Shown piece after piece: positions 12,225 to 54,710 of a stretch of 64,000 nt of DNA. Origin of the DNA: a virus (lineage: Duplodnaviria; Heunggongvirae; Uroviricota; Caudoviricetes); IMG/VR virus record IMGVR_UViG_3300025713_000004; one strand, given 5' to 3'. A model generated the notes under the pieces. It was not told where the DNA came from, ran no database searches, and saw only the letters and a program-made list of their open reading frames with translations. Numbering within the stretch: position 1 is the first letter of the stretch; each line of letters opens with the position of its first letter. Both the position numbers and the translations under genes were made by a program.

Positions 12225-13454
12225 TTATTTGTTTTTATTCAAATCTTCCATCTTTTTCATAACATCCAATCCCATGCTAACACCAATCATATCCATTGGA
12301 TTTGCACCACCTTTACCTTCATTTCCCACAATAATCATTGTTGGTACTTTAATTTTAGCAAGTTCAGTTGCAACACCAACTTTTGTTTTATATTCCCATT
12401 CAACACGTTCTTGTGGTGTAAGTCCTGCGGAAACCTTAAGTCTTGCTGCTTCTGCTTCACCTTGACCCTTTGAAATTAATGCTTTACGTTCTTCTTCTGC
12501 TTCTTTTGCCTTAAACATTGCTACTTTATATGCTTTTTCTGCATTAAGTTCTGCGACTTCTTTTTCTTTCTGTGCAATTGTCACTTGTTTAATTTTATCA
12601 ACTTCTTGGTCTGCTTTTTCTTTAGCAATTCGTGTTTCACCTTTGGCTTTTTCTGTAATAGCATCTTGTTGTGCTTTTTGTGCATCCTTTCTTGAATCAA
12701 TTAATGCTATTAATTTATCATCAAAATCCATATCCTTAATATTAAATTGTGGTAAAGTGATATCATATTTACCAAGCAACGATTCTTTCATTATTATAGG
12801 TTTTCCTGTAGTATCTCTATTTACACTATAATGTTTAATTTCTTGATTTTGACCTGCTGAATTTGTAATAAATTCACTTCTTACTTTAGATTCATATAAA
12901 CCAAATAATGCTTGTTCTTTCGATAATCGAATAAATTCAGAACGTTTATTGGAATATGCTTCTTCAGCAGACATTAATGTGGCAGTATTTTTTAATGCTT
13001 CCGTAATTTGTTGTTTAATCATATACTGAAGATTAGAATTATTACCATATTTAATATGAAGTTCAATTTGAATTTCTGGAACTAATGGTATTTCATATAA
13101 ACCAACAAAATCAATATCGGCATAACCATTCGGAAATAGTACACGTTCAGGTTTAATTTCTCTATTAGTAAGACTTTTATCACCCTTTTCTTTACTTAAT
13201 ATTACATCATCAGTAATTCGATATGTAGTAATTTTTCCAAAATTTTGCATATAAGTACCAGGTGTATTTCTAACACTCAACTTACCACTAATTAATGATT
13301 GTTTAACTTGATAATATCCTGCATTGTTTGTTTCAAATAGTTTAAAAATTGCAATAAGAATTAATGCAGAAATTACAACAAGTGATGTAATCATCATAAT
13401 TGAACGAGATTTCATAGCGTTCATTTTTGTTTGATTTTCATTTCTTCTTTCCAT
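12225..13454 (-). CDS. SPFH/band-7 (stomatin/prohibitin/HflKC-like) membrane protein
   Basis: An N-terminal transmembrane helix (IMMITSLVVISALILIAIF) is followed by an SPFH-like domain (YYQVKQSLISGKLSVRNTPGTYMQNFGKITTYRI...). A long Ala/Glu/Lys coiled-coil tail follows (KAQQDAITEKAKGETRIAKEKADQEV...AEEERKALISKGQGEAEAARLK). This is the HflK/C-stomatin architecture. Confidence 0.7.
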   Translation of the reverse strand: MERRNENQTKMNAMKSRSIMMITSLVVISALILIAIFKLFETNNAGYYQVKQSLISGKLSVRNTPGTYMQNFGKITTYRITDDVILSKEKGDKSLTNREIKPERVLFPNGYADIDFVGLYEIPLVPEIQIELHIKYGNNSNLQYMIKQQITEALKNTATLMSAEEAYSNKRSEFIRLSKEQALFGLYESKVRSEFITNSAGQNQEIKHYSVNRDTTGKPIIMKESLLGKYDITLPQFNIKDMDFDDKLIALIDSRKDAQKAQQDAITEKAKGETRIAKEKADQEVDKIKQVTIAQKEKEVAELNAEKAYKVAMFKAKEAEEERKALISKGQGEAEAARLKVSAGLTPQERVEWEYKTKVGVATELAKIKVPTMIIVGNEGKGGANPMDMIGVSMGLDVMKKMEDLNKNK

Positions 13455-41336: not shown

Positions 41337-43451
41337 ATGAAAAATAATATTGTTGTTGTTTTTTCATCCCATTTATCTGAAGAAGAAAATCAGAAATTTA
41401 TTAAACATATTAACAATACCATTGGTAAAGTTAAACATGATGTAATTTGCTATTCAAATTTTAATCAGTATAGTCTTACTGAAATTTATAATAAAGCGAT
41501 TAAAGAACATTATAAAAAGGATTCTATATTTGTTGTTTGTCATAATGATATTATTATAGGTACGAGAGATTGGGGTAAATTATTGCTTTTTAAATTTAAT
41601 CAAACAAATTTTGATATTATTGGTGTTGCAGGTAGTACCTATTTACCTGAATCCTGTGTATGGTGGGAAGATAGAACAAAAATGGTTGGTATTGTTGACC
41701 ATACGGATGGATATTCTATTTGGACAAGTGAATATTCTAAAGAAAAAAAGGGTGTGATTACACCAGTTGTTTTGGTTGATGGTCTTTTTATTTCTTTTAA
41801 TCCCGATACGATTGTACATAGATTTGATGAAGAATTTAAAGGGTTTCATCTTTATGATTTATCATTTTGTATTCCAAATTGGCTTGATGGTTGTGATATT
41901 GGTGTAACAACAGATATTAGAATATTACATAAATCAATTGGTGAAACAAATCAACAATGGGATGAAAATAGAAAACAATTAGCGGAAAAATATTATGATG
42001 AATTACCAATAACAATATTACCAGAATATAATGATTTAATTGTTAATTTATTAACAGAGCCAAAAGTAACAGTAATTATTCCAACAAAAAATAATTTAAA
42101 GTATATTAAAAATAATATTTATTCTTGGAATAATGTTGTTAATTATGATAATTATGAAATAATTATTGCTGATACGGGTAGTGATGAAAGTGTAATTAAG
42201 GAATATGATTCATTTCTTTCAAATAAAATTAAATTAATAAAATATAATTATTATAATTTTGCTAAAATAAATAATGATGTAGTAAAAAATCATACATCTA
42301 ATGATACAGAATTAATACTATTTTGTAATGATGATATAAAATTATTAAATGATAGTCTTAGTAGATGTATTGAAATTTATAATCAAAATAAAGATACTGT
42401 TGGTACTATTGGTATTAGATTACATTATGGGGATGGTAGTATTCAACATAATGGGATTTTAATGTATAAAGAAAATAATATTTTAAGACTTACACATAAA
42501 GATATTAGAAAAACTGAAAATTATTTTACTGGTATTAATTACGATTCATTGGGAAATACTGGTGGGTTTATGTTAATTAAAAAAGATTTATTTTTAAAAT
42601 ATGGTGGGTTTAATGAAAACTATATTGAATGTTTGGAAGATGTTGAATTAAATATTAAATGTAAATACGATGGATTAAAAAATATTACAGTTAGTGATGC
42701 TGTTGCAATTCATTATGAATCTATAAGTAGAAATAAAATTTTGGGTGGTAATGAAAGATTTATGGTTGATTATAATAGATTGATGAATTTTGTAAACGAT
42801 TTTGAAAATAAAGAAAGAGAAATTAAAAGAAATAAAGAAAATAAAAATCCAATTATTAATATTATAACAAGAACACACGATAGACCTAAACATTTTAAAA
42901 TATGTAGAGATTCAATTTTAAATCAAACAAATAAAAATATTAATCATATTGTTGGTAGTGATATTGATTGTGATTATTGTGATGATTATATTAAATTAGA
43001 ATTACAAGAAGTTCAACCAAAACCAGATAATTTGGCATCATATCCTGCACCTTGGAATTTACACATAAATGTTTTACATAACTATGTAAAAGAAGGTTGG
43101 ATTATGTATTTAGATGATGATGATATGTTTATTAATGAAAATTCTTTAAGTATAATAGTGAATCATATTGAAAATGAAGATGAATTATTGCTTTGGAGAG
43201 TAAACATTAATGGAAGAATAGTTCCAGATGATAATGGTTTTGGAAAAATTATTGCAGGGAATATATCTGGTATTGGTTTTATGTTTCATTCGAAATATTT
43301 ACCAATTGATTGGGTGTCTTGGAATTTTGGTGATTATAGGGCTATTAAACAATTAGAAAATAAAAAATTAAAACAGAAATGGATTAACCAAGTGTTAACA
43401 AAAACACAAGGTGTTCCAAATTTAGGAAAAAAACCAAATGATTATGAATAG
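41337..43451 (+). CDS. multidomain glycosyltransferase (two or three GT2-like modules)
   Basis: The 704-aa protein has repeated GT2 N-terminal signatures (VVVFSSHLSEEEN...; VTVIIPTKNNLKYIKNNIYSW...IIIADTGSDES; IINIITRTHDRPKHFKICRDSILNQT) and DxD-like segments (CNDDI, LDDDDMFI). Confidence 0.6.
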   Translation: MKNNIVVVFSSHLSEEENQKFIKHINNTIGKVKHDVICYSNFNQYSLTEIYNKAIKEHYKKDSIFVVCHNDIIIGTRDWGKLLLFKFNQTNFDIIGVAGSTYLPESCVWWEDRTKMVGIVDHTDGYSIWTSEYSKEKKGVITPVVLVDGLFISFNPDTIVHRFDEEFKGFHLYDLSFCIPNWLDGCDIGVTTDIRILHKSIGETNQQWDENRKQLAEKYYDELPITILPEYNDLIVNLLTEPKVTVIIPTKNNLKYIKNNIYSWNNVVNYDNYEIIIADTGSDESVIKEYDSFLSNKIKLIKYNYYNFAKINNDVVKNHTSNDTELILFCNDDIKLLNDSLSRCIEIYNQNKDTVGTIGIRLHYGDGSIQHNGILMYKENNILRLTHKDIRKTENYFTGINYDSLGNTGGFMLIKKDLFLKYGGFNENYIECLEDVELNIKCKYDGLKNITVSDAVAIHYESISRNKILGGNERFMVDYNRLMNFVNDFENKEREIKRNKENKNPIINIITRTHDRPKHFKICRDSILNQTNKNINHIVGSDIDCDYCDDYIKLELQEVQPKPDNLASYPAPWNLHINVLHNYVKEGWIMYLDDDDMFINENSLSIIVNHIENEDELLLWRVNINGRIVPDDNGFGKIIAGNISGIGFMFHSKYLPIDWVSWNFGDYRAIKQLENKKLKQKWINQVLTKTQGVPNLGKKPNDYE

Positions 43452-44145
43452 TAAAGTAGATATTTACATTGCATCTTTATGGCGACAAGGACATGTTGTA
43501 AATACAGTAAATTCAATATTGCTTAATCCAGAAGCGGAAAAAATTACTATATCATGTAATTTGTATACTGATGAACAATGGGGATATGTTAATAATGAGT
43601 TGAGAAATTCAAAAATTAAATTACATAGAACAAACAATGAAAAATGTAGTAATGAAAAATTAAAATATATAAATAACGGTAATAGCCCATATATTGCGTT
43701 AATTGATGATGATTTAATTTATCCTTCGGATTATTTAAAAAAATTAATTGATGGTTGTGAAAAATATCAAGGACACGTATCATTACATGGGGTAATATTA
43801 AATCCAAGACCAATTAGGTCATATTATCATAATAGAATAGTATATAGAGGTTTAGGAAATGTGAATGAAGATGTTAAAGTAGATATTATTGGTAGTGGAA
43901 CATTATTATTTAAACGTGAATGGTATGATGATTTGGATGAATGGTATGATAGGTGTAGTAATGTATCAATGGATGATATTTATGTTAGTTTTTTTGCAAG
44001 AAGTAAAAACATTCCAAGATATGTTTTAGCACATAAAGAAGGATATTTAAAACATAAAGAAATAAAAAAAGAAGATTATTATGTTTTTGATAAATATGTA
44101 AATAATGATAAGGTACAAACAGATTTTATAAATATTTATTTTTAA
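43438..44145 (+). CDS. hypothetical protein (possible glycosyltransferase-like)
   Basis: The 235-aa protein has IALIDDDLIYP, resembling a DxD sugar-transferase motif. The call is weak. Confidence 0.35.
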   Translation: MIMNSKVDIYIASLWRQGHVVNTVNSILLNPEAEKITISCNLYTDEQWGYVNNELRNSKIKLHRTNNEKCSNEKLKYINNGNSPYIALIDDDLIYPSDYLKKLIDGCEKYQGHVSLHGVILNPRPIRSYYHNRIVYRGLGNVNEDVKVDIIGSGTLLFKREWYDDLDEWYDRCSNVSMDDIYVSFFARSKNIPRYVLAHKEGYLKHKEIKKEDYYVFDKYVNNDKVQTDFINIYF

Positions 44146-44155
44146 TATAATTAAC

Positions 44156-44740
44156 ATGCCTTTTGAAAGTAAAAAATATTGGATTGATAGGTATGCAACA
44201 CATGGTGGTATTTCTGGTGTTGGTTCTTATGGAATATATGCCGAATATAAAGCAAATATTATAAATAAATTTTTTATTGATTATAATATTGAAACTGTTT
44301 TGGAATTGGGATGTGGTGATGGTAATCAATTATCTTATTTAAAACCAAAAAAATACTATGGTTATGATATTAGTGATTTTGTAATTAGTAAAAATAAAAA
44401 AAGATTTAATGGCTCTAATTATTTTTTTACTACAAATTTAGATGAATTGAAATCAAAAAAATTTGATGTGGTTTTATCTTTGGATGTTATTTACCATTTA
44501 ATAGAAGATAATAATTATTATGAATATATGAAAAATTTATTTTTCTTTTCTAAAAAATATGTAATTATATATTCAACAAATAATAATAATAATTGGTTGT
44601 CTGAACATTGTAAAAATAGAATTTTTATGAATGATATTTCAAATAATTTTAAATTAATTAATAAAATTGATAATCCATTAAAAGGAGAAAATACACAATC
44701 TGATTTTTATTTTTTTAAAAATGAAAAGAACGAGATATAA
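44156..44740 (+). CDS. class I SAM-dependent methyltransferase
   Basis: Motif I VLELGCGDGNQLSYL and the acidic post-I residue (YGYDISD) fit the Rossmann methyltransferase fold. Confidence 0.6.
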   Translation: MPFESKKYWIDRYATHGGISGVGSYGIYAEYKANIINKFFIDYNIETVLELGCGDGNQLSYLKPKKYYGYDISDFVISKNKKRFNGSNYFFTTNLDELKSKKFDVVLSLDVIYHLIEDNNYYEYMKNLFFFSKKYVIIYSTNNNNNWLSEHCKNRIFMNDISNNFKLINKIDNPLKGENTQSDFYFFKNEKNEI

Positions 44741-45626
44741 CATAAAAAAACAAATAAAGAAAAAGATTAATAATACTATAACTAAGAAAAATATAGTAAT
44801 AAATAATCTAAATAAAAAAAATAACATTAATTTAAATTCTGATAAAATATATGAAAATAAAAAATCAGAATCAAAAAATAATTTTCCTAATATTGTTGAA
44901 AATAAAAAAATAGAATCGAAAAACGATATTATTAACATAATTGAAAATAAAATAAAAAACTATGATTTGATTGATAATTTAAATCCAAAAATATTATTTT
45001 TAATTTCAAATTATGAAAGAGAAGAAATGTTAAAACAATTAATTTCAGAAATTAAAACAATAAATGCGGATTATATTATATTTGATGATGTATCATCATA
45101 TAAAATTGATGACCCGAATGTGATTATTAATGATTATCATAGAGGAAAGGGTGATTATTGGAAAACTTTTGATGATATGTTTAAATATTGCAAGGAAAAT
45201 TATTATGATATATATGTTTTTACACCTAATGATTTTTTAAATTATAAATTTGATAAAATTATAACATATGGTGTTAATTTAAGAAATTATGAATATATAT
45301 TTAATATTATAAATGATGGTAGAAAATCTTGTTGGGTTGGTATTGAAGAAAAAATTTTAAATAATAAAATAAAATTATCGTTTTTTACTGATTGTGCATT
45401 TTTTACTAATTATAAAACACTTAGTTTATTAGAATTTAAAATGAATAAAATTAATTTAAAACCCATTCCAAATCGAGGGTCTTTTGTTGGAGAACAACTT
45501 ACAAGAAGATTGGTAAACCTAAAAGTGCCAATATTTACACCTATTAAAAGTTTTGCATATCATGGTGACCATGAATCATTAATGAATCCTGAAGTTAGAA
45601 AAATTCATAAAATAATTTCATTATAA
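44721..45626 (+). CDS. hypothetical protein
   Basis: A 301-aa ORF with an Asn/Lys-rich N-terminus and a structured C-terminal half. Confidence 0.4.
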   Translation: MKRTRYNIKKQIKKKINNTITKKNIVINNLNKKNNINLNSDKIYENKKSESKNNFPNIVENKKIESKNDIINIIENKIKNYDLIDNLNPKILFLISNYEREEMLKQLISEIKTINADYIIFDDVSSYKIDDPNVIINDYHRGKGDYWKTFDDMFKYCKENYYDIYVFTPNDFLNYKFDKIITYGVNLRNYEYIFNIINDGRKSCWVGIEEKILNNKIKLSFFTDCAFFTNYKTLSLLEFKMNKINLKPIPNRGSFVGEQLTRRLVNLKVPIFTPIKSFAYHGDHESLMNPEVRKIHKIISL

Positions 45627-45631
45627 AAAGA

Positions 45632-46315
45632 ATGAATATGAAAAATAATGTTGTTATAAAAAATTTTAAATATGATAATTTTCAATATTCATTTAAAGGA
45701 GTTGAAAATGAACATTTTTTTAAACAAATACCTTGGTATGAACAAGAATTATTAGAAAATATTAGTAATTTAAATTTAAATGGTGTTTATGTTGATGTTG
45801 GTGGTAATATAGGAAATCATTCATTATTTTTTGCCAATCATTGTAATTCAACAAAATTATATATATTTGAACCAGAAAATTTTTGTTTTAACATTTTAAA
45901 TGAGAATTTATCAAAAAATTCAAAAAAACAATATGTTTTAAGAAATATTGCTTTATGGAACAAAAAAGATGAATTAAATTTAATTAAATATGAAACATAT
46001 CAAAATACTGGAATATCGAAAGTAATTGAAAAAAATAAAAACAATGACAATTTATTATTTATAATTTCAAATACATTGGATGATGAAATTTCATTAAATG
46101 AAAATGTTGTGTTGATTAAAATAGATACTGAAGGTGCTGAAAGAAAAATACTTGATGGTGGTATAAATTTAATAAAAAACAAATTACCTGTTATTATTTG
46201 TGAAGCAGCAACAAGTGAAGAATTTAAAGAAATTGATGATTTTTTAAAACCTTTGGGATATAAAACACCCACAAGAAGATTTAATGCAACACCAACATAT
46301 ATTTGGGTTTGTTAA
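45632..46315 (+). CDS. FkbM-family methyltransferase
   Basis: GVYVDVGGNIGNHSLFFANH is the FkbM-domain signature (hhDhGAN.G..S..F). Confidence 0.6.
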   Translation: MNMKNNVVIKNFKYDNFQYSFKGVENEHFFKQIPWYEQELLENISNLNLNGVYVDVGGNIGNHSLFFANHCNSTKLYIFEPENFCFNILNENLSKNSKKQYVLRNIALWNKKDELNLIKYETYQNTGISKVIEKNKNNDNLLFIISNTLDDEISLNENVVLIKIDTEGAERKILDGGINLIKNKLPVIICEAATSEEFKEIDDFLKPLGYKTPTRRFNATPTYIWVC

Positions 46316-46345
46316 ACTATATTTATTATGTAAAAAAATAATATT

Positions 46346-47101
46346 ATGGATAAAGTATTAGTTATTGGTGATAGTTGTATTGATGAATTTCAATATGGTG
46401 TTTGTGAAAGAATTAGTCCTGAAGCACCAGTGCCTATTTTTAAGAGTTTGTATGGTGTTCAATCTAGTGGTATGGCAAGTAATGTTAAAAATAATTTAGA
46501 AGGTTTAGGTATTTCGTGTGATATAATTACAAATACTATGGTAAAACCACATAAATTAAGATTTGTTGATAAAAAAACAAATCAAATGTTACTTAGGGTT
46601 GATGGTTATGATAGGATTGTTGAAAAAGCAGAAGAATATTTAGTTAATATTAATTTTAATGATTATGATGCTATTGTAATTTCAGATTATGATAAAGGTT
46701 TTCTTACTGAAAATACTATAACAAATATAACAAATAAACACAAATTAGTTTTTTTAGATAGCAAAAAAAAGTTTGGAAAATGGGCAGATGGTATAGAATT
46801 CATAAAAGTTAATGAAAATGAGTTTAATAATAATTCAAAGTATTTAATTGATGATTTTAAGGGTGAATTAATTATTACCTTGGGGGATGAAGGTGCTAGA
46901 CATAATGATGTTTTATATCATGTTGAACAACAATATGCTATTATTAATTTAGCGGGTGCTGGTGATACTTTTTTTGCAGGTTTTGTGGCAAATTATTTAG
47001 AATTTGGAAATATTCCAAAAGCAATTAATTTTGCAAATAAATGTGCTTCTTGGGTTGTTTCCCAAAAAGGTGTTGGTGTTATAAATAAAAGTAATATATG
47101 A
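46346..47101 (+). CDS. sugar kinase, D-glycero-beta-D-manno-heptose-7-phosphate kinase-like (HldE/RfaE domain I homologue)
   Basis: The N-terminus VLVIGDSCIDEFQYGVCERISPEAPVPIF matches the HldE kinase start (ILVVGDVMLDRYWYG...RISPEAPVPVV). NLAGAGDTFFAGFV is the ribokinase/pfkB anion-hole motif. Confidence 0.65.
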   Translation: MDKVLVIGDSCIDEFQYGVCERISPEAPVPIFKSLYGVQSSGMASNVKNNLEGLGISCDIITNTMVKPHKLRFVDKKTNQMLLRVDGYDRIVEKAEEYLVNINFNDYDAIVISDYDKGFLTENTITNITNKHKLVFLDSKKKFGKWADGIEFIKVNENEFNNNSKYLIDDFKGELIITLGDEGARHNDVLYHVEQQYAIINLAGAGDTFFAGFVANYLEFGNIPKAINFANKCASWVVSQKGVGVINKSNI

Positions 47102-47481
47102 TAAAAATTTTAAACATAAATGATTTGGATTTTGAATCTATTGTTGAGAAAAAATGGGGTCGTGAAATAATACTACATAATGATGAAAATTATTGTGGTA
47201 AAATACTTCAATTTAAATCTGGTTCTAAATTTAGTATGCATTACCATTTAAAAAAAGAAGAAACCTTTTATGTAAATAAAGGAAAATTAATATTAAATTA
47301 TATTGATACTAATGATGCTACTGAATATTCAAGAGAACTTAATATTGGTGATGTTATTCATATTGAACAGGGTGACCCACATCAAATAATAGCATTGGAA
47401 GATAGTGAAATTATTGAAATATCAACACAACATTTTGATTTTGATAGTTATAGAATAAGAAAGGGTGATAGTCAATCATGA
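47098..47481 (+). CDS. cupin-domain protein (mannose-6-phosphate-isomerase-like small barrel)
   Basis: KWGREIILHNDENYCGKILQFKSGSKFSMHYHLKKEETFYVNKGKL is the cupin_2 pattern (W G.E...... KhL.h.PG..hS.Q.H..R.E.WhVh.G). It may supply the isomerase step of the heptose pathway. The call is uncertain. Confidence 0.45.
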   Translation: MIKILNINDLDFESIVEKKWGREIILHNDENYCGKILQFKSGSKFSMHYHLKKEETFYVNKGKLILNYIDTNDATEYSRELNIGDVIHIEQGDPHQIIALEDSEIIEISTQHFDFDSYRIRKGDSQS

Positions 47482-47768
47482 TAATTTATGTAGATATTGA
47501 TAATACAATATGTTATACGAATGGAAATGATTATGTTAATTCAATACCAAATTTTGAAAACATCAAAAAGGTAAATAAACTATATGATGATGGTAATATA
47601 ATAATATATTGGACAGGAAGGGGTATGAAAAGTGGTTTAGATTGGACTAATTTAACAAAAAAACAACTATCTGATTGGGGTTGTAAATATAATGAATTAA
47701 TAATGAATAATAAACCAGCCTTTGATTTATTAATAGATGATAAGGCAATAAAAATTGATGAATTATGA
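47478..47768 (+). CDS. compact HAD-family phosphatase (GmhB-like candidate)
   Basis: HAD motif I is IYVDIDNT, motif II WTGR, motif III K(PAFD) and motif IV LLIDD. It sits between the kinase and adenylyltransferase genes, as the D,D-heptose-1,7-bisphosphate phosphatase does in the pathway. Confidence 0.45.
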   Translation: MIIYVDIDNTICYTNGNDYVNSIPNFENIKKVNKLYDDGNIIIYWTGRGMKSGLDWTNLTKKQLSDWGCKYNELIMNNKPAFDLLIDDKAIKIDEL

Positions 47769-48190
47769 GAGTTTGGGTAAATGGTTGTTTTGATATTCTT
47801 CATAGTGGTCATATTGATTTATTGTGGTTTGCAAAAAGATATGGTGTTACTAAAAAGAAACAAAATAAATTAAATAAACTATTTGTTGGTTTAGATAGTG
47901 ATGAACGTATAAAAGAATTAAAAGGGGATAATCGTCCAATAAATGATTTAGAAACAAGAGTTAAAATAATGTCAAGTTTAAATATGGTTGATGTTGTTGC
48001 TATATTTAATACGGATGATGAATTAAAAAATTATATAAAGAACTTAAAAATTGATTGTATGGTTGTTGGTGATGAATATAAAAATAAAACAGTTATTGGT
48101 TCTGAGTATTCAAAATATGGTGTTGTTTATTATCCAAAAACAAACGGAAAATCAACAACCGATATTATTAATAAAATAAAGAAATTATGA
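47765..48190 (+). CDS. D-beta-D-heptose-1-phosphate adenylyltransferase-like cytidylyltransferase-fold protein (HldE/RfaE domain II homologue)
   Basis: VWVNGCFDILHSGHIDLLWFAKRYG...LFVGLDSDERIKELKGDNRPINDLETRVKIMSSLNMVDVV matches RfaE domain II (VFTNGCFDILHAGHVSYL...[41 protein letters not shown]). Confidence 0.7.
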   Translation: MRVWVNGCFDILHSGHIDLLWFAKRYGVTKKKQNKLNKLFVGLDSDERIKELKGDNRPINDLETRVKIMSSLNMVDVVAIFNTDDELKNYIKNLKIDCMVVGDEYKNKTVIGSEYSKYGVVYYPKTNGKSTTDIINKIKKL

Positions 48191-49101
48191 TTGTAATTAC
48201 TGGTGGTGATGGTTTTATTGGTAGAAATTTAGTGTTTGAATTTTCTATAACGAATAATAAATTACCAATTAAAATTCTTGATACTAAAAGAGAAAGTTTA
48301 AATGATATTTATATTTGGTTAACAAATAATGCTAGTAGTATTAAAACTATTATTCATTTGGGTGCAATTACAGATACTACATTAGAAAATAGTGAACTTT
48401 TTTATGAATATAATTTAGGTATGTCTATGTTTATTTGGAAACTATGTTCTAAATATGATATAACATTAATTTATGCTAGTTCTGCTGCAACGTATGGTGA
48501 TGGTAGTTATGGTTTTGATGATAAATCGGATATTTGGAAATTAAAACCATTGAATTTATATGGTTGGTCAAAACATAATTTTGATTTATGGTCACAATTA
48601 GAACATAAATCACCTAAGAATTGGTATGGTTTGAAGTTTTTTAATGTGTATGGTAAATTTGAAGAATATAAACTTAGAATGTCTTCAATGATATATCAAA
48701 TATATAATCAAATTATTGATAATGGGTATGTAAAATTATTTAAATCAAACACATTTAATATTTTGGATGGTGAACAGAAAAGAGATTTTATTCATATTGA
48801 TGATGTTGTAAATGTTATAATATTTTTAATAAATAGATTACCAAAATCAGGTATTTATAATGTTGGAACAGGAATTGCAAGGTCGTTTAATGATATTGCT
48901 AATATTATTTTTCACAATTTAGGAATACCACCTAATATTAAGTATATTGATATTCCAGATAGTATATCAGATAAATATCAAAATTTTACAGAAGCAAAAA
49001 TTGATAAATTAAAAGAAATTGGTTATTCTATTAAATTTAAGAGTTTAGAATATGGAATTAGTGAATATTTAAAATATTTAAATTATTTAAAAAAATGGTA
49101 A
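48187..49101 (+). CDS. hldD: ADP-L-glycero-D-manno-heptose-6-epimerase (HldD/RfaD-like short-chain dehydrogenase)
   Basis: The N-terminus MIVITGGDGFIGRNLV matches HldD MIIVTGGAGFIGSNIV. YGWSKHNFD is the catalytic YxxxK region (HldD YGYSKFLFD). The 304-aa length is typical. Confidence 0.7.
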   Translation: MIVITGGDGFIGRNLVFEFSITNNKLPIKILDTKRESLNDIYIWLTNNASSIKTIIHLGAITDTTLENSELFYEYNLGMSMFIWKLCSKYDITLIYASSAATYGDGSYGFDDKSDIWKLKPLNLYGWSKHNFDLWSQLEHKSPKNWYGLKFFNVYGKFEEYKLRMSSMIYQIYNQIIDNGYVKLFKSNTFNILDGEQKRDFIHIDDVVNVIIFLINRLPKSGIYNVGTGIARSFNDIANIIFHNLGIPPNIKYIDIPDSISDKYQNFTEAKIDKLKEIGYSIKFKSLEYGISEYLKYLNYLKKW

Positions 49102-49736: not shown

Positions 49737-49962
49737 ATGTTAAGTAGTATTTATAATAAATAAATTATAAATGCTATGGAAAATAAAATTGATAAAGTAA
49801 TTGACGATTTTATTGATAATGAAAATCAAGAAACCCAAAATAAAGAATTTAATAAAAGGGTTATAAAAAAAAGTGATAATTCTATTATTGAACGTCTTGA
49901 TAAAATCATTATTGCAGAAAATGGTAAACAATTACTAAGAGAGGTTTATTAATAACATTCAT

Positions 49963-50667
49963 ATGAAAAAAAATATTAGTTTAAATCCAATAGATAAGCA
50001 TTTGGATAGAATAAAATATGTTGTAGATTATAAAATTAACGAATCTGCTAGATATATACCAATTAGTAATTTAGATGAATTTGACGAAATTCCAAATACT
50101 AATGAAGCGGATGATGTTGTAAATGATGATAATTTAGAAAAAAAACCAAAAATTAATAATCCTGAAAAACAAGAGGATGATACTGGTGGAGTTCCAGCAG
50201 AAACGCCAATACCTTCATTTGATGCAGAAAATCCCAATGAAAATCCAAATAATGAATTAAATAATGAACCTGTAAATGAACCTCAAGAAAATGTTGATAA
50301 TATTCAAAATGATATTATTAGACATAATATTGAAGCCATGAAAACTATTCATAGTGAATTGGAAAATCTTAACAATATGGTTCAATCGTTAAATTCAAAA
50401 TTGGATGTTTTAAATTCTGATGTGGAAGAAGTTCGTGAACCATCAACCGTTGAAAAATTAACATCAAGAAAAAATGTTAGTTATCCATATTATTTTAATT
50501 TAAACGATATGTGGAGTAATAATTGGTTTAATAATAAATATAATACTGGTGATAATATGGAAAATGGTGTTAGAGAATTACCTGATGGTACTTTTATTGC
50601 AGATTTTGATGATTTACCACAAAAATCAAGAATTGATATAAAAAATAGTTTTACTGAAATTGATTAG
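49963..50667 (+). CDS. hypothetical acidic coiled-coil protein
   Basis: A 234-aa protein with a central Pro/Glu/Asn-rich acidic stretch and coiled-coil segments. Confidence 0.4.
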   Translation: MKKNISLNPIDKHLDRIKYVVDYKINESARYIPISNLDEFDEIPNTNEADDVVNDDNLEKKPKINNPEKQEDDTGGVPAETPIPSFDAENPNENPNNELNNEPVNEPQENVDNIQNDIIRHNIEAMKTIHSELENLNNMVQSLNSKLDVLNSDVEEVREPSTVEKLTSRKNVSYPYYFNLNDMWSNNWFNNKYNTGDNMENGVRELPDGTFIADFDDLPQKSRIDIKNSFTEID

Positions 50668-50669
50668 TG

Positions 50670-51116
50670 ATGGTGTTAAAAGGAAATCAACATAGTAAAG
50701 AAAGATTTTTTGATTTATTTAAAAAAGTTAATTATATTAATGAATCTAAATTATCACCAGAAAAAAAAATGAAAATCCTTAATGATTTTGTGAATTTTGT
50801 TGGAAATAAATTGGATATTATGGATAATTTACCAAATATAAAAATATCTAATGATGATTTTGCAGCAAAAAAAATGAAATCATTTGGTAAATATACACCA
50901 GATTTAAAAGAAATTGTTGTTGTAATGGTAAATAGAAATTTGGCAGATGTTTTAAGAACATTAGCACATGAAATAGTCCATCATAAACAGAATTTAGAAA
51001 ATAAATTAGATGTTAATTCAAATGATGATGGTAGTGATATTGAAAATGAAGCCAATGCATTAGCAGCAGTTTTTATGAGAGAATATGGTAAAAATAATCC
51101 TATAATATTTGAATAA
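50670..51116 (+). CDS. ImmA/IrrE-family (COG2856-like) HExxH metallopeptidase domain protein with a conserved N-terminal leader
   Basis: LAHEIVHHKQN...ENEANALAAVFM matches the ImmA/IrrE signature (HE..H...E.EAN.FA..F). The ORF track begins at a GTG at 50667, and the first ATG is at 50670. The N-terminal 30 aa are paralogous to the start of the next gene. Confidence 0.5.
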   Translation: MVLKGNQHSKERFFDLFKKVNYINESKLSPEKKMKILNDFVNFVGNKLDIMDNLPNIKISNDDFAAKKMKSFGKYTPDLKEIVVVMVNRNLADVLRTLAHEIVHHKQNLENKLDVNSNDDGSDIENEANALAAVFMREYGKNNPIIFE

Positions 51117-51118
51117 TT

Positions 51119-53194
51119 ATGAGAGTTTTTAGTCCAATTGGTAGTAAAGAAAGATTATTTGAAATGCTTCAAAGAGTAAATAAAATTACTTTAAATGAGG
51201 AAAATATAATAAATAATCCAATAGAAAATTTAAAAATAGTATTCAATCAACTACTTAATGATGAAATTGAAATTAAAAGAATAACAAATGATATTGAATC
51301 AAATGAATGTTATACAACAATTGATTGTTTAGGTGAAAATAATAGAGAAATTAATTTTGTTTTCAAAAGTGAATTTATTGAAAGGGAAACTGATGGTGTA
51401 ATTGAAATTGAAGATTCAAAATTAATTAATTTTTTTATGGGCAATGATGGTGATTCATTAAACATTGATGAAAACACACTAAAAGAATTTAATGATGATT
51501 ATAATACAGAAATTATTGATTTTATTTCTAATTATATTAATTTTGAAGATGATATGAAATCAAAGGTTGATGATTTGGATGAAGTTATTAAATTAATTGA
51601 TAATATTCCATATAAAAGAAGTACAGAAGAATTACAAAATCATAAATCCTATGTTGATGAAAAACCAACAAATCCGAATCTTAGAGTAAACTCACCCGAA
51701 TTAAATTCATATGTTACTGAAAATAATGATGATTTTGATGATGATTTTAATTATGATGATTTAGATGATGAAGATTTGGATGATGGATTAGATTATGATG
51801 ATAATTTTGGAAATAATTTAAATAATGATATTGATTTTGATGATGATTCCAATTTAGTAAATAAATATAGTGATAAGGATGCAATGAAGTATAAAGATTT
51901 AGAAAATGATTATGATGATGAAAACATATCTAATTTAGATTATGAAAATATGGAAAGTTCATCAGAAGATGATGAATTATATAATAAAGCATTTGATAAT
52001 TTAATGATGAAAAATAAAACACAAAAAAATCCAAATTATTTTCCGTCAAAATCTGAAGTTGAAAGAGAAGTAAATAGAATTTCTAATTTAAATAAAGAAC
52101 CCGAAAAAAGAAAAAAAGGAATGAGAATGGCTAAAAATAAAACACGTGTATATCCATCATGGGCTGATAATTATTTAAGTGAAAATAAATTAAAAAACAC
52201 AAATGTTGATTATATTGAATGGAAGTATTTTAATTCAACTAGTGATGAATTTAAAACGTTTTTAATAAAAAGAGCAGATAATATAATCACTAATAAATAT
52301 GGTATTAATAAATTCAAAATACCAAAAGAAAAATATCATAATTTGATAAGAGATTTAGTCGTTGTATTATTTAAAGAACATATAAGAAGTATGAATGAAT
52401 CTGAAGATGATGTCATTAAGAATGCTGAAGATAATGAAAATCTTAATATTGGTGATGTTGTTGAAGTAAATGGAATAGAAGGTACATTTCAAATAGGTGT
52501 TTTAGCAAGAGAAGGTAAACCTTTTATAATGCCTTTTGATATGAATACAAAAAAACCATATACAAGATTTAGAATATATCTATTTTCATTGAAAGATACT
52601 AACATGAAAAGAATTATGAGGTTTTCAGAAACTGATGGTGGTTTTATTATTGAATCAGAAGAAGAAATTGAAACAACTGAAAAAAATAATTTAGATATTG
52701 AAAATCTTGCAAAAAAAAGGGATGAAATCGGTGACCAAATTGAAGGTGGTCTTGGTGATGATAAGTCACCATTGGAATTTGACCCAGAACAAATTAAATT
52801 GGGAATGAAGGTTGAAATGGAACATACTAATGACCCTATGATTGCATTGGAAATAGCATTAGACCATTTAACTGAAGACCCTAAATATTATACTGTTAAA
52901 GAAGACCCAGAAATAAGCGCACAATTTAATGCAAGTAAGGAAGCAAGTGAATATGATAATGAAAAGGAATTGGTAGATGAATTGTTGGGTTATAAGCCAA
53001 TAAATGTTGGTGATTTAACTGAAGAAATTGTTGGTTCTGATAATGCAAAATCGGTTGTGGGTGGTCAAAGTTCTGATAATAATGATGATGAAATAAAAAA
53101 ATATCAGGAATATGAAAAGAAAGATTTTAATAGTTTAAGGGATGATGAAAAAGAAGAATTTTTTGAATTATGGAAAAAATATAGAGAAAAATAA
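51119..53194 (+). CDS. large acidic protein (691 aa) sharing the N-terminal leader of the preceding peptidase
   Basis: Its start (...GSKERLFEMLQRVNKITLNEENI) parallels the start of the 50670 gene (...HSKERFFDLFKKVNYINESKLSPE). It has long Asp/Asn acidic tracts (DDFDDDFNYDDLDDEDLDDGLDYDD) and a conserved C-terminal block LGMKVEMEHTNDPMIALEIALDHLTEDPKYY. Confidence 0.5.
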   Translation: MRVFSPIGSKERLFEMLQRVNKITLNEENIINNPIENLKIVFNQLLNDEIEIKRITNDIESNECYTTIDCLGENNREINFVFKSEFIERETDGVIEIEDSKLINFFMGNDGDSLNIDENTLKEFNDDYNTEIIDFISNYINFEDDMKSKVDDLDEVIKLIDNIPYKRSTEELQNHKSYVDEKPTNPNLRVNSPELNSYVTENNDDFDDDFNYDDLDDEDLDDGLDYDDNFGNNLNNDIDFDDDSNLVNKYSDKDAMKYKDLENDYDDENISNLDYENMESSSEDDELYNKAFDNLMMKNKTQKNPNYFPSKSEVEREVNRISNLNKEPEKRKKGMRMAKNKTRVYPSWADNYLSENKLKNTNVDYIEWKYFNSTSDEFKTFLIKRADNIITNKYGINKFKIPKEKYHNLIRDLVVVLFKEHIRSMNESEDDVIKNAEDNENLNIGDVVEVNGIEGTFQIGVLAREGKPFIMPFDMNTKKPYTRFRIYLFSLKDTNMKRIMRFSETDGGFIIESEEEIETTEKNNLDIENLAKKRDEIGDQIEGGLGDDKSPLEFDPEQIKLGMKVEMEHTNDPMIALEIALDHLTEDPKYYTVKEDPEISAQFNASKEASEYDNEKELVDELLGYKPINVGDLTEEIVGSDNAKSVVGGQSSDNNDDEIKKYQEYEKKDFNSLRDDEKEEFFELWKKYREK

Positions 53195-53220
53195 ATTTAA
53201 ATAATATTTCTTTTTTGAAA

Positions 53221-53250
53221 AAGGACTACTTATTGTAGTCTTTTTTTGTT
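53221..53250 (+). terminator. rho-independent terminator
   Basis: aaggactac-ttatt-gtagtcttt is followed by TTTTTTTG. Confidence 0.6.
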
Positions 53251-53294
53251 GTTGTTGAAAATATTACTATTTATATTAGAATAAATTTATCATT

Positions 53295-54710
53295 ATGAGT
53301 AGAATTAGAAGTTATTTTAAAAAGTCAAATACTTTAATAACAAATAATACAACAAATAATTCTCAAAATCCTGTTACCGAAATATCATATGGTACTTATG
53401 ATGGTTGTGTTAGTAGATATATTTTTGATATTGATTTTTCTTTATTAAGAAAAAGAATAGAAAGGGGTATTATTATTCAAAACAATATTAAAAAACATAT
53501 TTTACACATGACAAATACAATTGGTAGGGATTTAAAATATGTTGGAAAAAAATCATATTCGGAAATGATTGAAAGAGCAAGTAGTTTTGAATTGGAAGTT
53601 TTTAATCTTTCTGAAGATTGGGATGAAGGAAATGGTTATGATTTATTATATGATGATACATTTGCTGATAAATCATCAAAACATGCATCCAATTGGTTTA
53701 ATAGAAAAACAAATTTATTTTGGAATGTAGATGGTGTTTATTCAACTGGTAATACTGAAATTATTGGAAATCAAAGATTTGAAAAGGGTAATGAAAATAT
53801 TGAAATTGATATTACTGATTATGTAAACCAAAGATTATTTGAAAATGAATATAGTGGTAATACTGTTTTTAGTGGTGATTCTTTTGGTTTAGGGATTAAG
53901 TTTTTAGACTTATATGAATCTTTGGAAACAGATTTTAGACATGCAGTTGCTTTTCATACAAATAAAACAAACACGTGGTATGAACCGTATGTTGAAACAA
54001 TTTATGATGATATCATATTAGATGATAGAAATTATTTTTATTTAGATAAAAAAAATAGATTATATTTATATACAAATTCTATTAGTATTTTAAATAATAA
54101 TGAAATTATTGTTAATCATGTAAATATATATGATAATAATAATAATTTTATTGAAACCATTAGTGGTGATTCAATTACGAATGTTGGTAATGGAATTTAT
54201 TTTGTTGAATATAAAATAAATTCAAATGAATATCCTGATAGTGTTTTATTTGTAGATGAATGGAATTTAACAATGAATGGAGTTGAAAGTAATTATTATA
54301 GTAAATTTTATTTGATATCACCAGAAAAATATTTTATAATTAATGAAGAATCACAACTAAATTTAGAAAATTATCATTTTAATTTTTGGGGAATTAAAGA
54401 ATCTGAACAAATAAAATCTGGTGATATAAGGAAAATAAAAATATCGGTTAAAGAATTGTATACAAACCAAAACAATTTTATTCCATTAAATATTGAATAT
54501 AGAGTATATATAAAAATTAGTGATGGATATGAAATTGATGTAATACCATTTACTAGTGTAAATAGAACCAAATTTGGATATTATTTTAATTTAGATACAT
54601 CGTGGTTAATACCACAAGTTTATTATATTCAAATTAAGTTAAAATCGGGCGAATATTTTGATATAAAACAACCATTATCGTTTGAAATAGTAAATGATGG
54701 ATTTTTTTAA
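53295..54710 (+). CDS. hypothetical protein with beta-sandwich (DNRLRE/CBM-like) sequence features
   Basis: The 471-aa protein has segments ELEVFNLSEDWDEGNGYD and NIEIDITDYVNQ, which resemble the W.E..(V)TW and W..FDVT strands of DNRLRE-type carbohydrate-binding-like domains. The call is low-confidence. Confidence 0.4.
   Translation: MSRIRSYFKKSNTLITNNTTNNSQNPVTEISYGTYDGCVSRYIFDIDFSLLRKRIERGIIIQNNIKKHILHMTNTIGRDLKYVGKKSYSEMIERASSFELEVFNLSEDWDEGNGYDLLYDDTFADKSSKHASNWFNRKTNLFWNVDGVYSTGNTEIIGNQRFEKGNENIEIDITDYVNQRLFENEYSGNTVFSGDSFGLGIKFLDLYESLETDFRHAVAFHTNKTNTWYEPYVETIYDDIILDDRNYFYLDKKNRLYLYTNSISILNNNEIIVNHVNIYDNNNNFIETISGDSITNVGNGIYFVEYKINSNEYPDSVLFVDEWNLTMNGVESNYYSKFYLISPEKYFIINEESQLNLENYHFNFWGIKESEQIKSGDIRKIKISVKELYTNQNNFIPLNIEYRVYIKISDGYEIDVIPFTSVNRTKFGYYFNLDTSWLIPQVYYIQIKLKSGEYFDIKQPLSFEIVNDGFF

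Follow-up and report, generated by a model that had tools for sequence, protein, structure and literature searches.

Why do two neighbouring phage genes encode proteins that begin alike but are otherwise unrelated? The question is raised by two open reading frames in a stretch of 64,000 nucleotides, here called the window, which is 100% identical to a 220-kb contig. The phage belongs to a lineage of uncultivated T4-like jumbo phages with 24% G+C and sizes from 220 kb to about 370 kb.

Two adjacent genes with a common start

The two genes and their common N-terminal segments, here called leaders, are located as follows.

50670 (ATG)-51116, + strand: ORF1, 148 aa; leader, then a minimal zincin metallopeptidase of ~120 aa
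50670..50744, + strand: leader of ORF1, MVLKGNQHSKERFFDLFKKVNYINE, 25 aa, last residues I-N-E
51119-53194, + strand: ORF2, 691 aa; leader, then a modular acidic protein
51119..51199, + strand: leader of ORF2, MRVFSPIGSKERLFEMLQRVNKITLNE, 27 aa, last residues L-N-E

For ORF1, a GTG at 50667 and an ATG at 50670 are both available as start codons, and the ATG, giving 148 aa, is preferred because it agrees with homologues and with called genes. Pairwise BLASTP of ORF1 against ORF2 gives a single alignment, SKERFFDLFKKVNYI against SKERLFEMLQRVNKI, which begins at residue 10 of ORF1 and residue 9 of ORF2 and has 8/15 identical positions (E 0.021). Profile-profile comparison of the two families with hhalign yields an alignment of 25 columns (E 1.2e-10), in which residues 2-26 of ORF1 are matched to residues 1-27 of ORF2 and nothing beyond is included. 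The initial annotation's description of paralogous starts on unrelated remainders is thereby borne out; the common leader that it had put at about 30 residues comprises 25-27. A leader HMM, run in six frames over the window and flanks of ~20 kb (~85 kb in all, from a genome that measures at least 220 kb), matches exactly ORF1 and ORF2 (E 1e-17 and 3e-13; next best 0.17). The leader of ORF2 fits the leader consensus of the ORF1 family better than the leader of ORF1 itself.

A likeness of this kind might come from chance, from a recent local duplication or from a constraint on the nucleotides, such as a translation-initiation or regulatory RNA element. The pairwise E-value is just 0.021 and composition is biased by the very high AT content of the genome, but the profile-profile E-value and the conservation of the leader in about 300 representatives and ~55 loci leave such an origin extremely improbable. 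Synonymous codon choice varies freely under constant amino acids, for example TCA/AGT/AGC for Ser and CTT/CTC/TTA for Leu, which rules out a constraint at the RNA or DNA level; judged from these codons, the leader is selected at the protein level.

Leader, cargo slot and head genes

Among 1.84e9 proteins, the leader profile finds 309 cluster representatives, and nearly all matches begin at residue 1. They come from this phage lineage only and nearly always from one genomic slot. The leader is followed by a member of the peptidase family, of the ORF2 family or of one of a dozen or more further cargo families, all unrelated. The consensus is MK[IV][FY]xxxGSKERLFEMMxRVNx(xx)LNE, with a length of 27 or 25. 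Of 210 unique leaders, 208 finish in [LIVM]-x-E, with Leu (161) or Ile (43) at P3, so that (L/I)-x-E, the cleavage consensus sought at the leader end, is present in 204. Homology between leader proteins ceases at the Glu of this motif, and a second, internal x-x-E is kept at leader residue 15. The junction of leader and cargo is the exact site of insertions or fusions (L097, P0180), and in L104 and P0149 fused cargoes are recognizable by internal leaders. The initial annotation would have counted it against its reading if the shared N-terminus were a generic domain of many unrelated proteins. Many unrelated proteins do carry the leader, yet always at residue 1, in one lineage and nearly always in one slot, the pattern expected of a targeting sequence.

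The slot is bounded by two genes, and its surroundings are organized as follows.

49748..49755, + strand: TATTTATA motif, 28 nt 5' of the o58 start; candidate virion-gene ("late"-type) promoter of o58-o234-ORF1-ORF2
49776..49952, + strand: o58, 58 aa, first gene of the operon; syntenic across related loci
49963..50667, + strand: o234, left flank of the slot; left of leader genes in ~50 loci
53216..53258, + strand: intrinsic-terminator-like hairpin, GGACTAC-ttatt-GTAGTC followed by a T run; ends the operon
53268..53275, + strand: second TATTTATA motif, 27 nt 5' of o471
53295..54710, + strand: o471, right flank of the slot; syntenic in ~50 loci

Leader genes occupy ~55 related loci, all between o234 and o471, with one to three genes of varying type per slot, and this arrangement holds though the flanking proteins are just 40-70% identical to those of the window. 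Terminator-like sites number 3 in 6 kb against 0.8 expected. The slot lies among replication genes (gp32, uvsX and dnaB adjoin), outside the head module, which speaks against a role in head packaging, though the T4 ip genes lie outside that module as well. The acidic o234 protein has a coiled-coil-like segment, and its conserved N-terminal 27 residues finish in an invariant Glu (…YKINE|S); as a diverged leader this N-terminus was rejected (hhalign E 0.097, not significant). No family is assigned to o58, and o471 has no match in family or phage databases. Neither o234 and o471 nor the leader consensus together with one variant-leader protein have a match in 50,697 phage genomes (tblastn), and no cultured phage with the leader was found in the phage collection. 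Word-indexed searching of proteins, with the leader alignment as query, gave just 9 short fragments, most neighbouring ORFs and other cargo proteins lack PHROGs or Pfam matches, and NCBIfam was uninformative. Two variant-leader contigs (L006, L012) were expected to show head genes around the leader; their neighbours, RNA ligase and homing endonucleases, are uninformative.

On the 220-kb contig, head genes in T4 order begin 229 nt left of the window and comprise Gp23 (PF07068), a scaffold-like protein of 510 aa, a Peptidase_S77 protease (PF03420) and two small ORFs. The T4 gp21-like prohead protease that the initial annotation had proposed to look for is thus present in the same genome: the S77 protease (231 aa; L113 18613-19308, minus strand) has 31% identity with T4 gp21 (E 1e-19), and the two have in common the motifs "HP" and "SSRG.GS", which we take to hold the catalytic His and Ser. 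In the capsid protein alignment, L-K-E60|S lies under L-T-E65|A of T4 gp23.

We consider it somewhat probable that the common N-terminus of 25-27 residues is a capsid-targeting propeptide and a functional analogue of the capsid-targeting sequence (CTS) of T4. Such a packaging tag is proposed because the leader stands at the front of all genes of a single hypervariable slot in related phages and finishes at a T4-type head-protease motif. As [LI]-x-E is short and common in Glu-rich proteins, the weight of the motif lies wholly in its invariance and position.

The upstream motif connects the operon with virion genes. In 27/27 related loci, TATTTAT[AT] precedes the o58 start by 20-41 nt (mostly 23-28), and TATTTATA precedes the o471 start by 19-34 nt (mostly 19-24) in 35/43 loci, while TATTTAT[AT] stands upstream of just 0-11% of the genes for CTP-transferase, epimerase, o213, o234, uvsX, exo, o179 and dnaB. 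In this genome, TATTTATA stands before the genes for sheath, tube, hub, gp21 and scaffold and is absent upstream of gp32, uvsX, exo and dnaB. It is a candidate late-type promoter common to the operon and the virion genes. The T4 late promoter TATAAATA was discarded as a marker, not being enriched overall (48 observed vs 36.6 expected); the signal has the opposite orientation to TATAAATA, with TATTTATA on the coding strand.

AlphaFold models the leader in both proteins as a detached, low-confidence helix adjoining well-modelled domains. In ORF1 the helix spans residues 10-21 (pLDDT <50 at residues 1-9 and 15-27) and in ORF2 residues 10-20 (pLDDT <45 at residues 1-31). A short amphipathic helix could also be an uncleaved docking or oligomerisation element of proteins that are not packaged in the head. 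Its partner might be o234, o471, the tail lumen, a membrane or a replication factor, or it might bundle cargoes. The strict co-conservation of o234 and o471, the neighbourhood of gp32, uvsX and dnaB and the leader-like helix at the C-terminus of ORF2 fit such a role. We regard it as unlikely: it leaves unexplained why homology ends at the invariant Glu of (L/I)-x-E, why x-x-E is retained at residue 15 and why the upstream motif is common to head and tail genes and missing at the replication neighbours, and a cleavage site accounts better than would a docking helix at the terminus for internal leaders in fused proteins.

Cleavage itself could be due to the ORF1 zincin, with the leader as a recognition or pro-sequence for zymogen activation or for maturation of neighbours and with no link to the capsid. 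The peptidase is the commonest and best conserved occupant of the slot and adjoins or is fused to other leader proteins, and the small zincins selecase and projannalysin, structural neighbours of ORF1, exist as zymogens. On the other hand, 14/58 leader loci are without the peptidase, several of these slots being bounded by both o234 and o471 (e.g., L008/L089, L018, L037, L060 and L102). Glu at P1 is the rule for gp21-type head proteases, and we know of no M78-type peptidase that requires it. This explanation does not predict a virion-type motif upstream. We rate it as quite improbable, below the docking helix.

If the leader is a capsid-targeting propeptide, the operon o58-o234-ORF1-ORF2 would be transcribed together with the virion genes, and the amphipathic leader helix (…GSKERLFEMMKRVN…) would dock the nascent proteins onto the scaffolding core of a T4-type prohead. 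During maturation, the gp21-type serine protease would cut after the invariant Glu, residue 25 in ORF1 and 27 in ORF2, with a probable extra cut after the internal (L/F)-x-E at residue 15. The predicted mature N-termini are SKLSPEK… (ORF1, after E25) and ENIINNPIENLK… (ORF2, after E27). A zinc peptidase of ~14 kDa and a modular acidic protein of ~76 kDa would then reside inside the head and be ejected into the host along with the DNA. Docking to the core, cleavage, packaging and ejection are steps that we infer. The slot between o234 and o471 would act as an exchangeable cassette site, in which a gene placed behind the leader becomes packaged cargo.

Comparison with known packaging systems

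The CTS of T4 is the classic example of how a short tag can bring arbitrary proteins into the head of a phage, and to our knowledge it is known essentially from T-even phages. It reads MKTYQEFIAE and was reportedly described on internal proteins by Mullaney and Black in 1996. In T4, as here, unrelated proteins from a variable locus have nothing in common but a short N-terminus that finishes in (L/I)-x-E. Both genomes encode Gp23, a scaffold and a gp21-type (S77) protease, arranged in the T4 gene order, and the genes concerned (ip in T4) lie outside the head module. Inspection by eye against the T4 sequence reveals no similarity beyond the MK-x-aromatic start and the [IL]-x-E end. The leader is 2.5 times longer (25-27 vs 10 residues) and has the second internal x-x-E, and it heads a conserved zinc peptidase and a large acidic protein of modular build, whereas the cargoes of T4 are small basic or acidic internal proteins. 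The analogy to the T4 CTS drawn by the initial annotation thus agrees with portability, slot, (L/I)-x-E end, gp21/Gp23, virion-type motif and helix model, and does not extend to sequence homology. The internal proteins IPI, IPII and IPIII carry the CTS (reviews PMC3012670, PMC9026906); its residues 8 and 10 (I-A-E) govern processing, which Asp at position 10 blocks, and the cleavage logo of gp21 is "LIE" (PMC9026906). Related head proteases all cut after Glu (PMC5694885).

The giant phages phiKZ, 201phi2-1 and SPN3US also employ a T4-related head protease that cuts after Glu, and among their head proteins, paralogues have retained the same N-termini and diverged elsewhere (PMC5694885). Their ejection or inner-body proteins are cut at (S/A/G)-x-E and have propeptides often longer than 100 residues, whereas P3 is Leu or Ile here, as in T4; by its Gp23 and S77 Pfam matches the head module is T4-like, not phiKZ-like. 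In the Dar antirestriction system of phage P1, incorporation of the proteins depends on their N-terminal regions. These proteins are not known to have a short leader common to all of them or a sequence relationship with those described here. Dar proteins are packaged in the head, and their incorporation is tied to head morphogenesis (PMC12810830). Polyvalent proteins resemble the present system, in which modules are shuffled, in their variable multi-module architecture with a zincin peptidase (Iyer et al., 2017, PMC5512222). Here the peptidase is a neighbour in ~44 loci and is fused in L104, P0149, P0180 and gp088 of Flavobacterium phage immuto. Searches for the named polyvalent-protein Pfam domains (LPD, ART-PolyVal, MPTase-PolyVal and others) detected none, only DUF5661, and the N-terminal leader that defines the present system has no place in the concept of polyvalent proteins.

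In our judgement there is an even chance that the 27-residue leader is a portable packaging signal, by which one slot of this widespread lineage of uncultivated jumbo phages accepts injected effectors as plug-ins. In that case a whole repertoire of new virion-delivered proteins could be recognized from the leader sequence alone, among them a dozen orphan families and DUF5661 mosaics besides the conserved zinc peptidase of minimal size. The leader would permit a sequence-based listing of candidate injected proteins in metagenomic phages, a class otherwise unpredictable and one in which functions in early anti-defence and host takeover are to be expected. It would also provide a second, independent CTS, unrelated to that of T4, for loading foreign proteins into T4-type heads and a tag for engineered delivery, would make the packaging-tag strategy general among T4-type heads and would give a first biological context to DUF5661 and to the very abundant 148-aa zincin family.

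The two cargo proteins

ORF1 contains HEIVH (50967-50981) and ENEAN (51042-51056), and 72 homologues without exception keep H101, E102, H105, E126 and E128 (numbered from the GTG start). HExxH and a downstream Glu (ENEAN), the putative metal ligands, are shared with ImmA/IrrE (M78) peptidases. The best Pfam match is PF06114 (M78) at 21.9 bits and E 1.7e-4, the cut-off being 22.0, so of the ImmA/IrrE assignment in the initial annotation the active-site signature holds and the family is just borderline. Several close homologues carry a precomputed PF06114 match, JGI labels many "ImmA (M78 family)", and the top Foldseek match of the model is PprI/IrrE; querying PDB sequences with the ORF1 profile produced no relevant match. 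ORF1 is a minimal HExxH zincin with borderline M78 membership. Between 47765 and 56072, the neighbouring ORFs other than the 58-aa o58 showed no HTH family that could represent an XRE/ImmR-type repressor partner.

In a collection of 90%-identity clusters, ORF1 has 495 homologues at E ≤ 0.001. The protein is 55-65% identical across the lineage, about as conserved as UvsX or gp32. T4 internal proteins, in contrast, evolve fast, and this difference hints at a housekeeping role. The level of conservation is also unlike that of typical arms-race proteins. An anti-defence role of the ORF1/ORF2 pair is speculation. The most economical guess is that after injection the peptidase would process its modular partner or a conserved target, by analogy with what has been proposed for zincins within polyvalent proteins (Iyer et al., 2017, PMC5512222). 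In cyanophages, homologues of this peptidase domain are without the leader; phage immuto has the domain at aa 582-666 of gp088 (907 aa), with no N-terminal leader ahead.

ORF2, which the initial annotation had called highly acidic and DNA-mimic-like, has a pI of 4.4 and a net charge of -74 and is divided as follows after its leader.

51200..51718, + strand: N-domain, aa 28-200; alpha plus five-stranded beta-sheet, then a KPTNPxLRV motif; conserved in the ORF2 family
51719..51973, + strand: Asp/Asn-rich acidic segment, aa 201-285, net charge -32; predicted disordered
52784..52894, + strand: DUF5661 module (…VEMEHTNDPMIALEIALDHLTEDPKYY), aa 556-592; Pfam PF18905
53081..53191, + strand: C-terminal helices (…DDEKEEFFELWKKYREK); conserved in the family

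The N-domain is modelled well (pLDDT 70-88 at aa 32-140), and Foldseek of the ORF2 model against the PDB gave no credible fold match. A folded and conserved acidic surface, as in Ocr or ArdA, was looked for in ORF2 and not found: the acidic segment has pLDDT <50 throughout aa 201-285 and is absent or different in homologues. The high acidity is real, while the DNA-mimic suggestion finds no support in a predicted disordered, unconserved stretch without a fold match. The conserved C-terminal block noticed earlier, LGMKVEMEHTNDPMIALEIALDHL, corresponds to DUF5661 (PF18905; E 5.7e-9, 36.6 bits vs a gathering score of 27). This domain is present in ORF2 and nine other leader proteins, and also inside a DUF2213 head-module protein of Vibrio phage VPs20. 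The C-terminal helix of ORF2 resembles the leader core, with 7/10 identical residues, and gp088 of phage immuto has a C-terminal motif similar to that of ORF2.

A leader shared by two adjacent proteins

Two neighboring genes, separated by 2 nt, encode proteins that share an N-terminal leader of 25-27 residues ending in (L/I)-x-E:

50670-51116, plus strand: ORF1, 148 aa, leader and minimal zincin, with a GTG one codon upstream of the start
51119-53194, plus strand: ORF2, 691 aa, leader and modular acidic protein

When ORF1 and ORF2 are compared by BLASTP, the alignment is limited to 15 residues near their N-termini (E 0.021). The 495 homologs of ORF1, of about 148 aa and 55-65% identity, show the N-terminal consensus M.VF..YGSKERLFEMMKRVN.LNE, to which the leader of ORF2 is closer than ORF1's own, and the N-terminus of the ORF2 family is kept as MKIY.PIGSKERLFEMFQ.VNKI.LNE. 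Profile-profile comparison of both families aligns 25 columns (E 1.2e-10) and nothing past the leader Glu, and a leader HMM search of the window and its flanks, i.e., part of the genome, matches only ORF1 and ORF2. The common leader proposed in the initial annotation is therefore real and far beyond chance. As synonymous codons of the leaders vary under conserved amino acids, selection acts on the leader peptide; with the profile-profile result, this refutes chance or a nucleotide-level constraint as its source. The C-terminus of ORF2 (KEEFFELWKKYREK, 53081-53191) resembles the leader core KERFFDLFKK (7 of 10 residues identical) and is kept in many ORF2-family members; this may be coincidental, or the segment may serve as a second docking helix.

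A search of 1.84 billion cluster representatives with the leader HMM gave 309 matches (E <= 1e-3), nearly all beginning at residue 1, and two degenerate DNA-pattern scans of IMG/VR followed by HMM scans provided further leader proteins. Stripped of the leader, the matches listed sort into two families, that of ORF2 and that of the peptidase, besides several unrelated singletons. The leader is borne by at least a dozen cargo families that show no similarity to one another. In locus L097 and protein P0180, new modules directly follow the leader Glu, and natural fusions (L104, P0149) retain an internal leader between the joined cargoes. Peptidase-domain homologs of cyanophages are devoid of the leader, and in gp088 (907 aa) of Flavobacterium phage immuto the peptidase domain occupies aa 582-666, not a position behind an N-terminal leader. 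The leader is thus a portable N-terminal module. In AlphaFold models of ORF1 and ORF2, the cargo domains are modeled reasonably well and the leader (pLDDT < 50) stands apart as a helix spanning approximately residues 10-21; that it is an uncleaved docking or oligomerization helix serving another purpose seems unlikely to us.

Variant leaders (M..NKERLFEVM.KVNP.F..KE) occur on small orphan proteins of other IMG/VR contigs (L006, 1643-2095; L012, 1652-1999, minus strand; L041), outside the slot between genes o234 and o471 described below, with an RnlA-like RNA ligase and homing endonucleases among their neighbors. This leader family may be wider than the phage lineage.

Cargoes and their genomic slot

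The zincin of ORF1, about 120 residues long, keeps its HExxH and ENEAN motifs invariant and matches phrog_87 'metallo-protease' (5e-7). The earlier label 'ImmA/IrrE-type' is only loosely right: HExxH is present, PprI/IrrE is the best Foldseek match (E 0.02), and the Pfam M78 score (21.9 bits) stays just under the cut-off of 22. ORF2 (pI 4.4) consists of the following parts:

aa 28-200: N-domain, conserved
linker: disordered, Asp/Asn-rich, missing or replaced in homologs
helical modules
aa 556-592: DUF5661
C-terminal helix pair, conserved

Its relatives are mosaics built of shuffled modules. A fold search with the ORF2 model against the PDB gave no credible match, and the suggestion that ORF2 is DNA-mimic-like found no support. 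In Vibrio phage VPs20, DUF5661 forms part of a DUF2213 protein encoded between terminase and capsid genes. In immuto, a single 907-aa protein unites a peptidase like that of ORF1 with a C-terminal motif like that of ORF2; this resembles the polyvalent proteins, for which Iyer et al. predicted packaging and processing by zincin domains (PMC5512222). This gp088 (L109, 7132-9855) is annotated as NadR/NMN adenylyltransferase and is actually a mosaic: one region has motifs that, by eye, are nucleotidyltransferase-like, and there are a zincin similar to that of ORF1 (HEMIHH), a second motif, HEIEH, and, at the C-terminus, the ORF2-like 'KEEILALWRK'. Its architecture is like that of polyvalent proteins.

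Mapping the window's neighbor proteins onto 58 leader-bearing loci reveals a constant gene order, o213 - o58 - o234 - [leader genes] - o471 - gp32 - uvsX - exo - o179 - dnaB (o-names give ORF length in aa), with all leader genes confined to the interval from o234 to o471. Usually, this interval holds a peptidase and an ORF2-type protein. Single small cargoes (L094, L102) or two non-peptidase cargoes (L008/L089) are also found, as is a third small cargo, either 3' of ORF2 (L029, L063, L077, L106) or 5' of the peptidase (L002, L011, L058, L092, L104), and the peptidase is missing from 14 of the 58 loci. The slot is fixed and hypervariable. The o234 family has a conserved 27-residue N-terminus of its own (49963-50043; …L.EEHLRKIKYR.DYKINE|SPRYRPLV), ending at Glu27, which is invariant, belongs to an [ILV]-x-E motif, and is in register with the leader. 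This N-terminus may likewise be a propeptide; compared as profiles, it and the leader show no significant similarity (E 0.097).

Leader boundary and head protease

Among 210 unique leaders, [LIVM]-x-E forms the end of 208 (Leu in 161, Ile in 43), the distance to the terminal Glu being 27 or 25 residues, and a second, internal (L/F)-x-E is kept near residue 15. In the T4 capsid targeting sequence (CTS), residues 8 and 10 (I-A-E) govern processing, which is prevented by Asp at position 10 (PMC9026906). A cut after Glu is common to all related head proteases, and extra sites inside propeptides are frequent (PMC5694885). The initial annotation had pointed to a search for a prohead protease like T4 gp21 and for its consensus at the leader end; the 208 leaders end in a site of head-protease type, and the protease is encoded on contigs identical to the window, where head genes begin 229 nt outside the left end of the window, arranged as T4 67-68-21-22-23:

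left of the window: two small ORFs, 55 aa and 116 aa
left of the window: Peptidase_S77 (PF03420), 231 aa
left of the window: acidic scaffold-like protein, 510 aa
left of the window: Gp23 (PF07068), 560 aa

The Peptidase_S77 protein matches T4 gp21 (31% identity, E 1e-19), and the two have in common the motifs 'HP' and 'SSRG.GS', which we read as the probable site of the catalytic His and Ser. In a three-way alignment, L-K-E60|S of the capsid protein lies opposite L-T-E65|A of T4 gp23, the cleavage site in T4.

The reading with the best support, which we consider somewhat probable, is that the leader is a T4-CTS-like capsid-targeting propeptide, which a gp21-type protease would cleave after (L/I)-x-E and which would tag the proteins of the cassette slot for packaging and, presumably, injection. 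By inspection, the T4 CTS has no sequence homology to this leader. Removal of the leader by the ORF1 zincin itself is most improbable, being weakened by the 14 slots without peptidase and by Glu at P1. Against over-reading the capsid-targeting proposal count the missing homology to the T4 CTS and the strong conservation of the ORF1/ORF2 pair, unlike that of typical arms-race proteins. If the proposal is true, the leader offers a sequence-only means to list virion-delivered proteins of uncultivated jumbo phages.

Operon, upstream motif, and phage context

The genes o58, o234, ORF1, and ORF2 are tightly packed (gaps <= 10 nt) and located amid replication genes. Relevant signals are:

53216-53258: hairpin and T-run terminator, 3' of o58-o234-ORF1-ORF2
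7575, 14233, 17476 (-), 21891 (-), 25338, 33413, 34638, 49748, 53268: examples of TATTTATA sites, coding strand

TATTTATA lies 28 nt 5' of o58. Within 8-70 nt of a start codon, 14 coding-strand sites contrast with 4 for the reverse complement (Fisher p 0.017). The motif precedes sheath, tube, hub, and several large tail-region ORFs and, in a sister contig, gp21, the scaffold gene, and the 116-aa ORF; it was not found 5' of gp32, uvsX, exo, o179, dnaB, or o548. Among related loci, it occurs 20-41 nt (mostly 23-28) 5' of o58 in 27/27 and 19-34 nt (mostly 19-24) 5' of o471 in 35/43, compared with 0-11% for eight control genes. Therefore, the leader operon bears the upstream signal of virion genes. 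An orientation-specific form, (A/G)(C/G)TATTTATA, lies 19-50 nt 5' of head, tail, and unknown genes, not of replication genes, at a position conserved over about 30-40 related loci. TATTTATA is the reverse complement of the T4 late promoter TATAAATA, and we infer that the extended motif is a candidate late promoter of the lineage.

Among the products encoded by the window (G+C about 24%) are a tail sheath and a baseplate hub of T4 type, thymidylate synthase, a UvrD-like helicase containing two inteins, sugar-modifying enzymes encoded in one block, and a replication run of RecA/UvsX-like protein, 5'-3' exonuclease, DnaB-like helicase, and an SSB that is putatively gp32-like in our own reading, without a family match; PHROG and Pfam scans gave no match for most other window ORFs. 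By UvsX, the nearest cultured relative is immuto (33% identity), which has a T4-like head module. The phage is a jumbo, T4-like phage, since the window matches ENA contig NODE_87 (220,431 bp) at 100% identity except for a 1,977-bp IS607-type insertion at 128-2104; relatives reach 325-371 kb.

Within the insertion lie a serine transposase gene of the IS607 family (189-797; NCBIfam NF033518, E 4e-49) and a gene for a TnpB-like protein (808-2076; phrog_506). The insertion breaks a Mom-like/GIY-YIG homing-endonuclease gene, of 485 aa in sister contigs; it looks like an active IS polymorphism inside one phage population. The gene pair also occurs on phage contigs P0080 and P0113 (357-363 kb) and P0004 (7.5 kb), deposited in NCBI within MAGs named Dehalococcoidia, Paceibacterota, and Dojkabacteria; the contigs are probably binning contaminants there, not host evidence. 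The UvrD-like helicase (3875-7045, minus strand) has Hom_end_hint near its N-terminus and Intein_splicing at aa 583-807, two intein-type insertions, and a LAGLIDADG intein resides in the DnaB helicase of the related contig L002. An SPFH/Band-7 domain protein is phage-encoded at 12225-13454 (minus strand; Pfam E 3.8e-5; phrog_11908). The long co-directional block at 41337-49101, with two glycosyltransferases, methyltransferases, PfkB kinase, cupin, cytidylyltransferase (heptose-type by PHROG), and NAD-dependent epimerase, points to an elaborate pathway of glycan or DNA-sugar modification in this phage.
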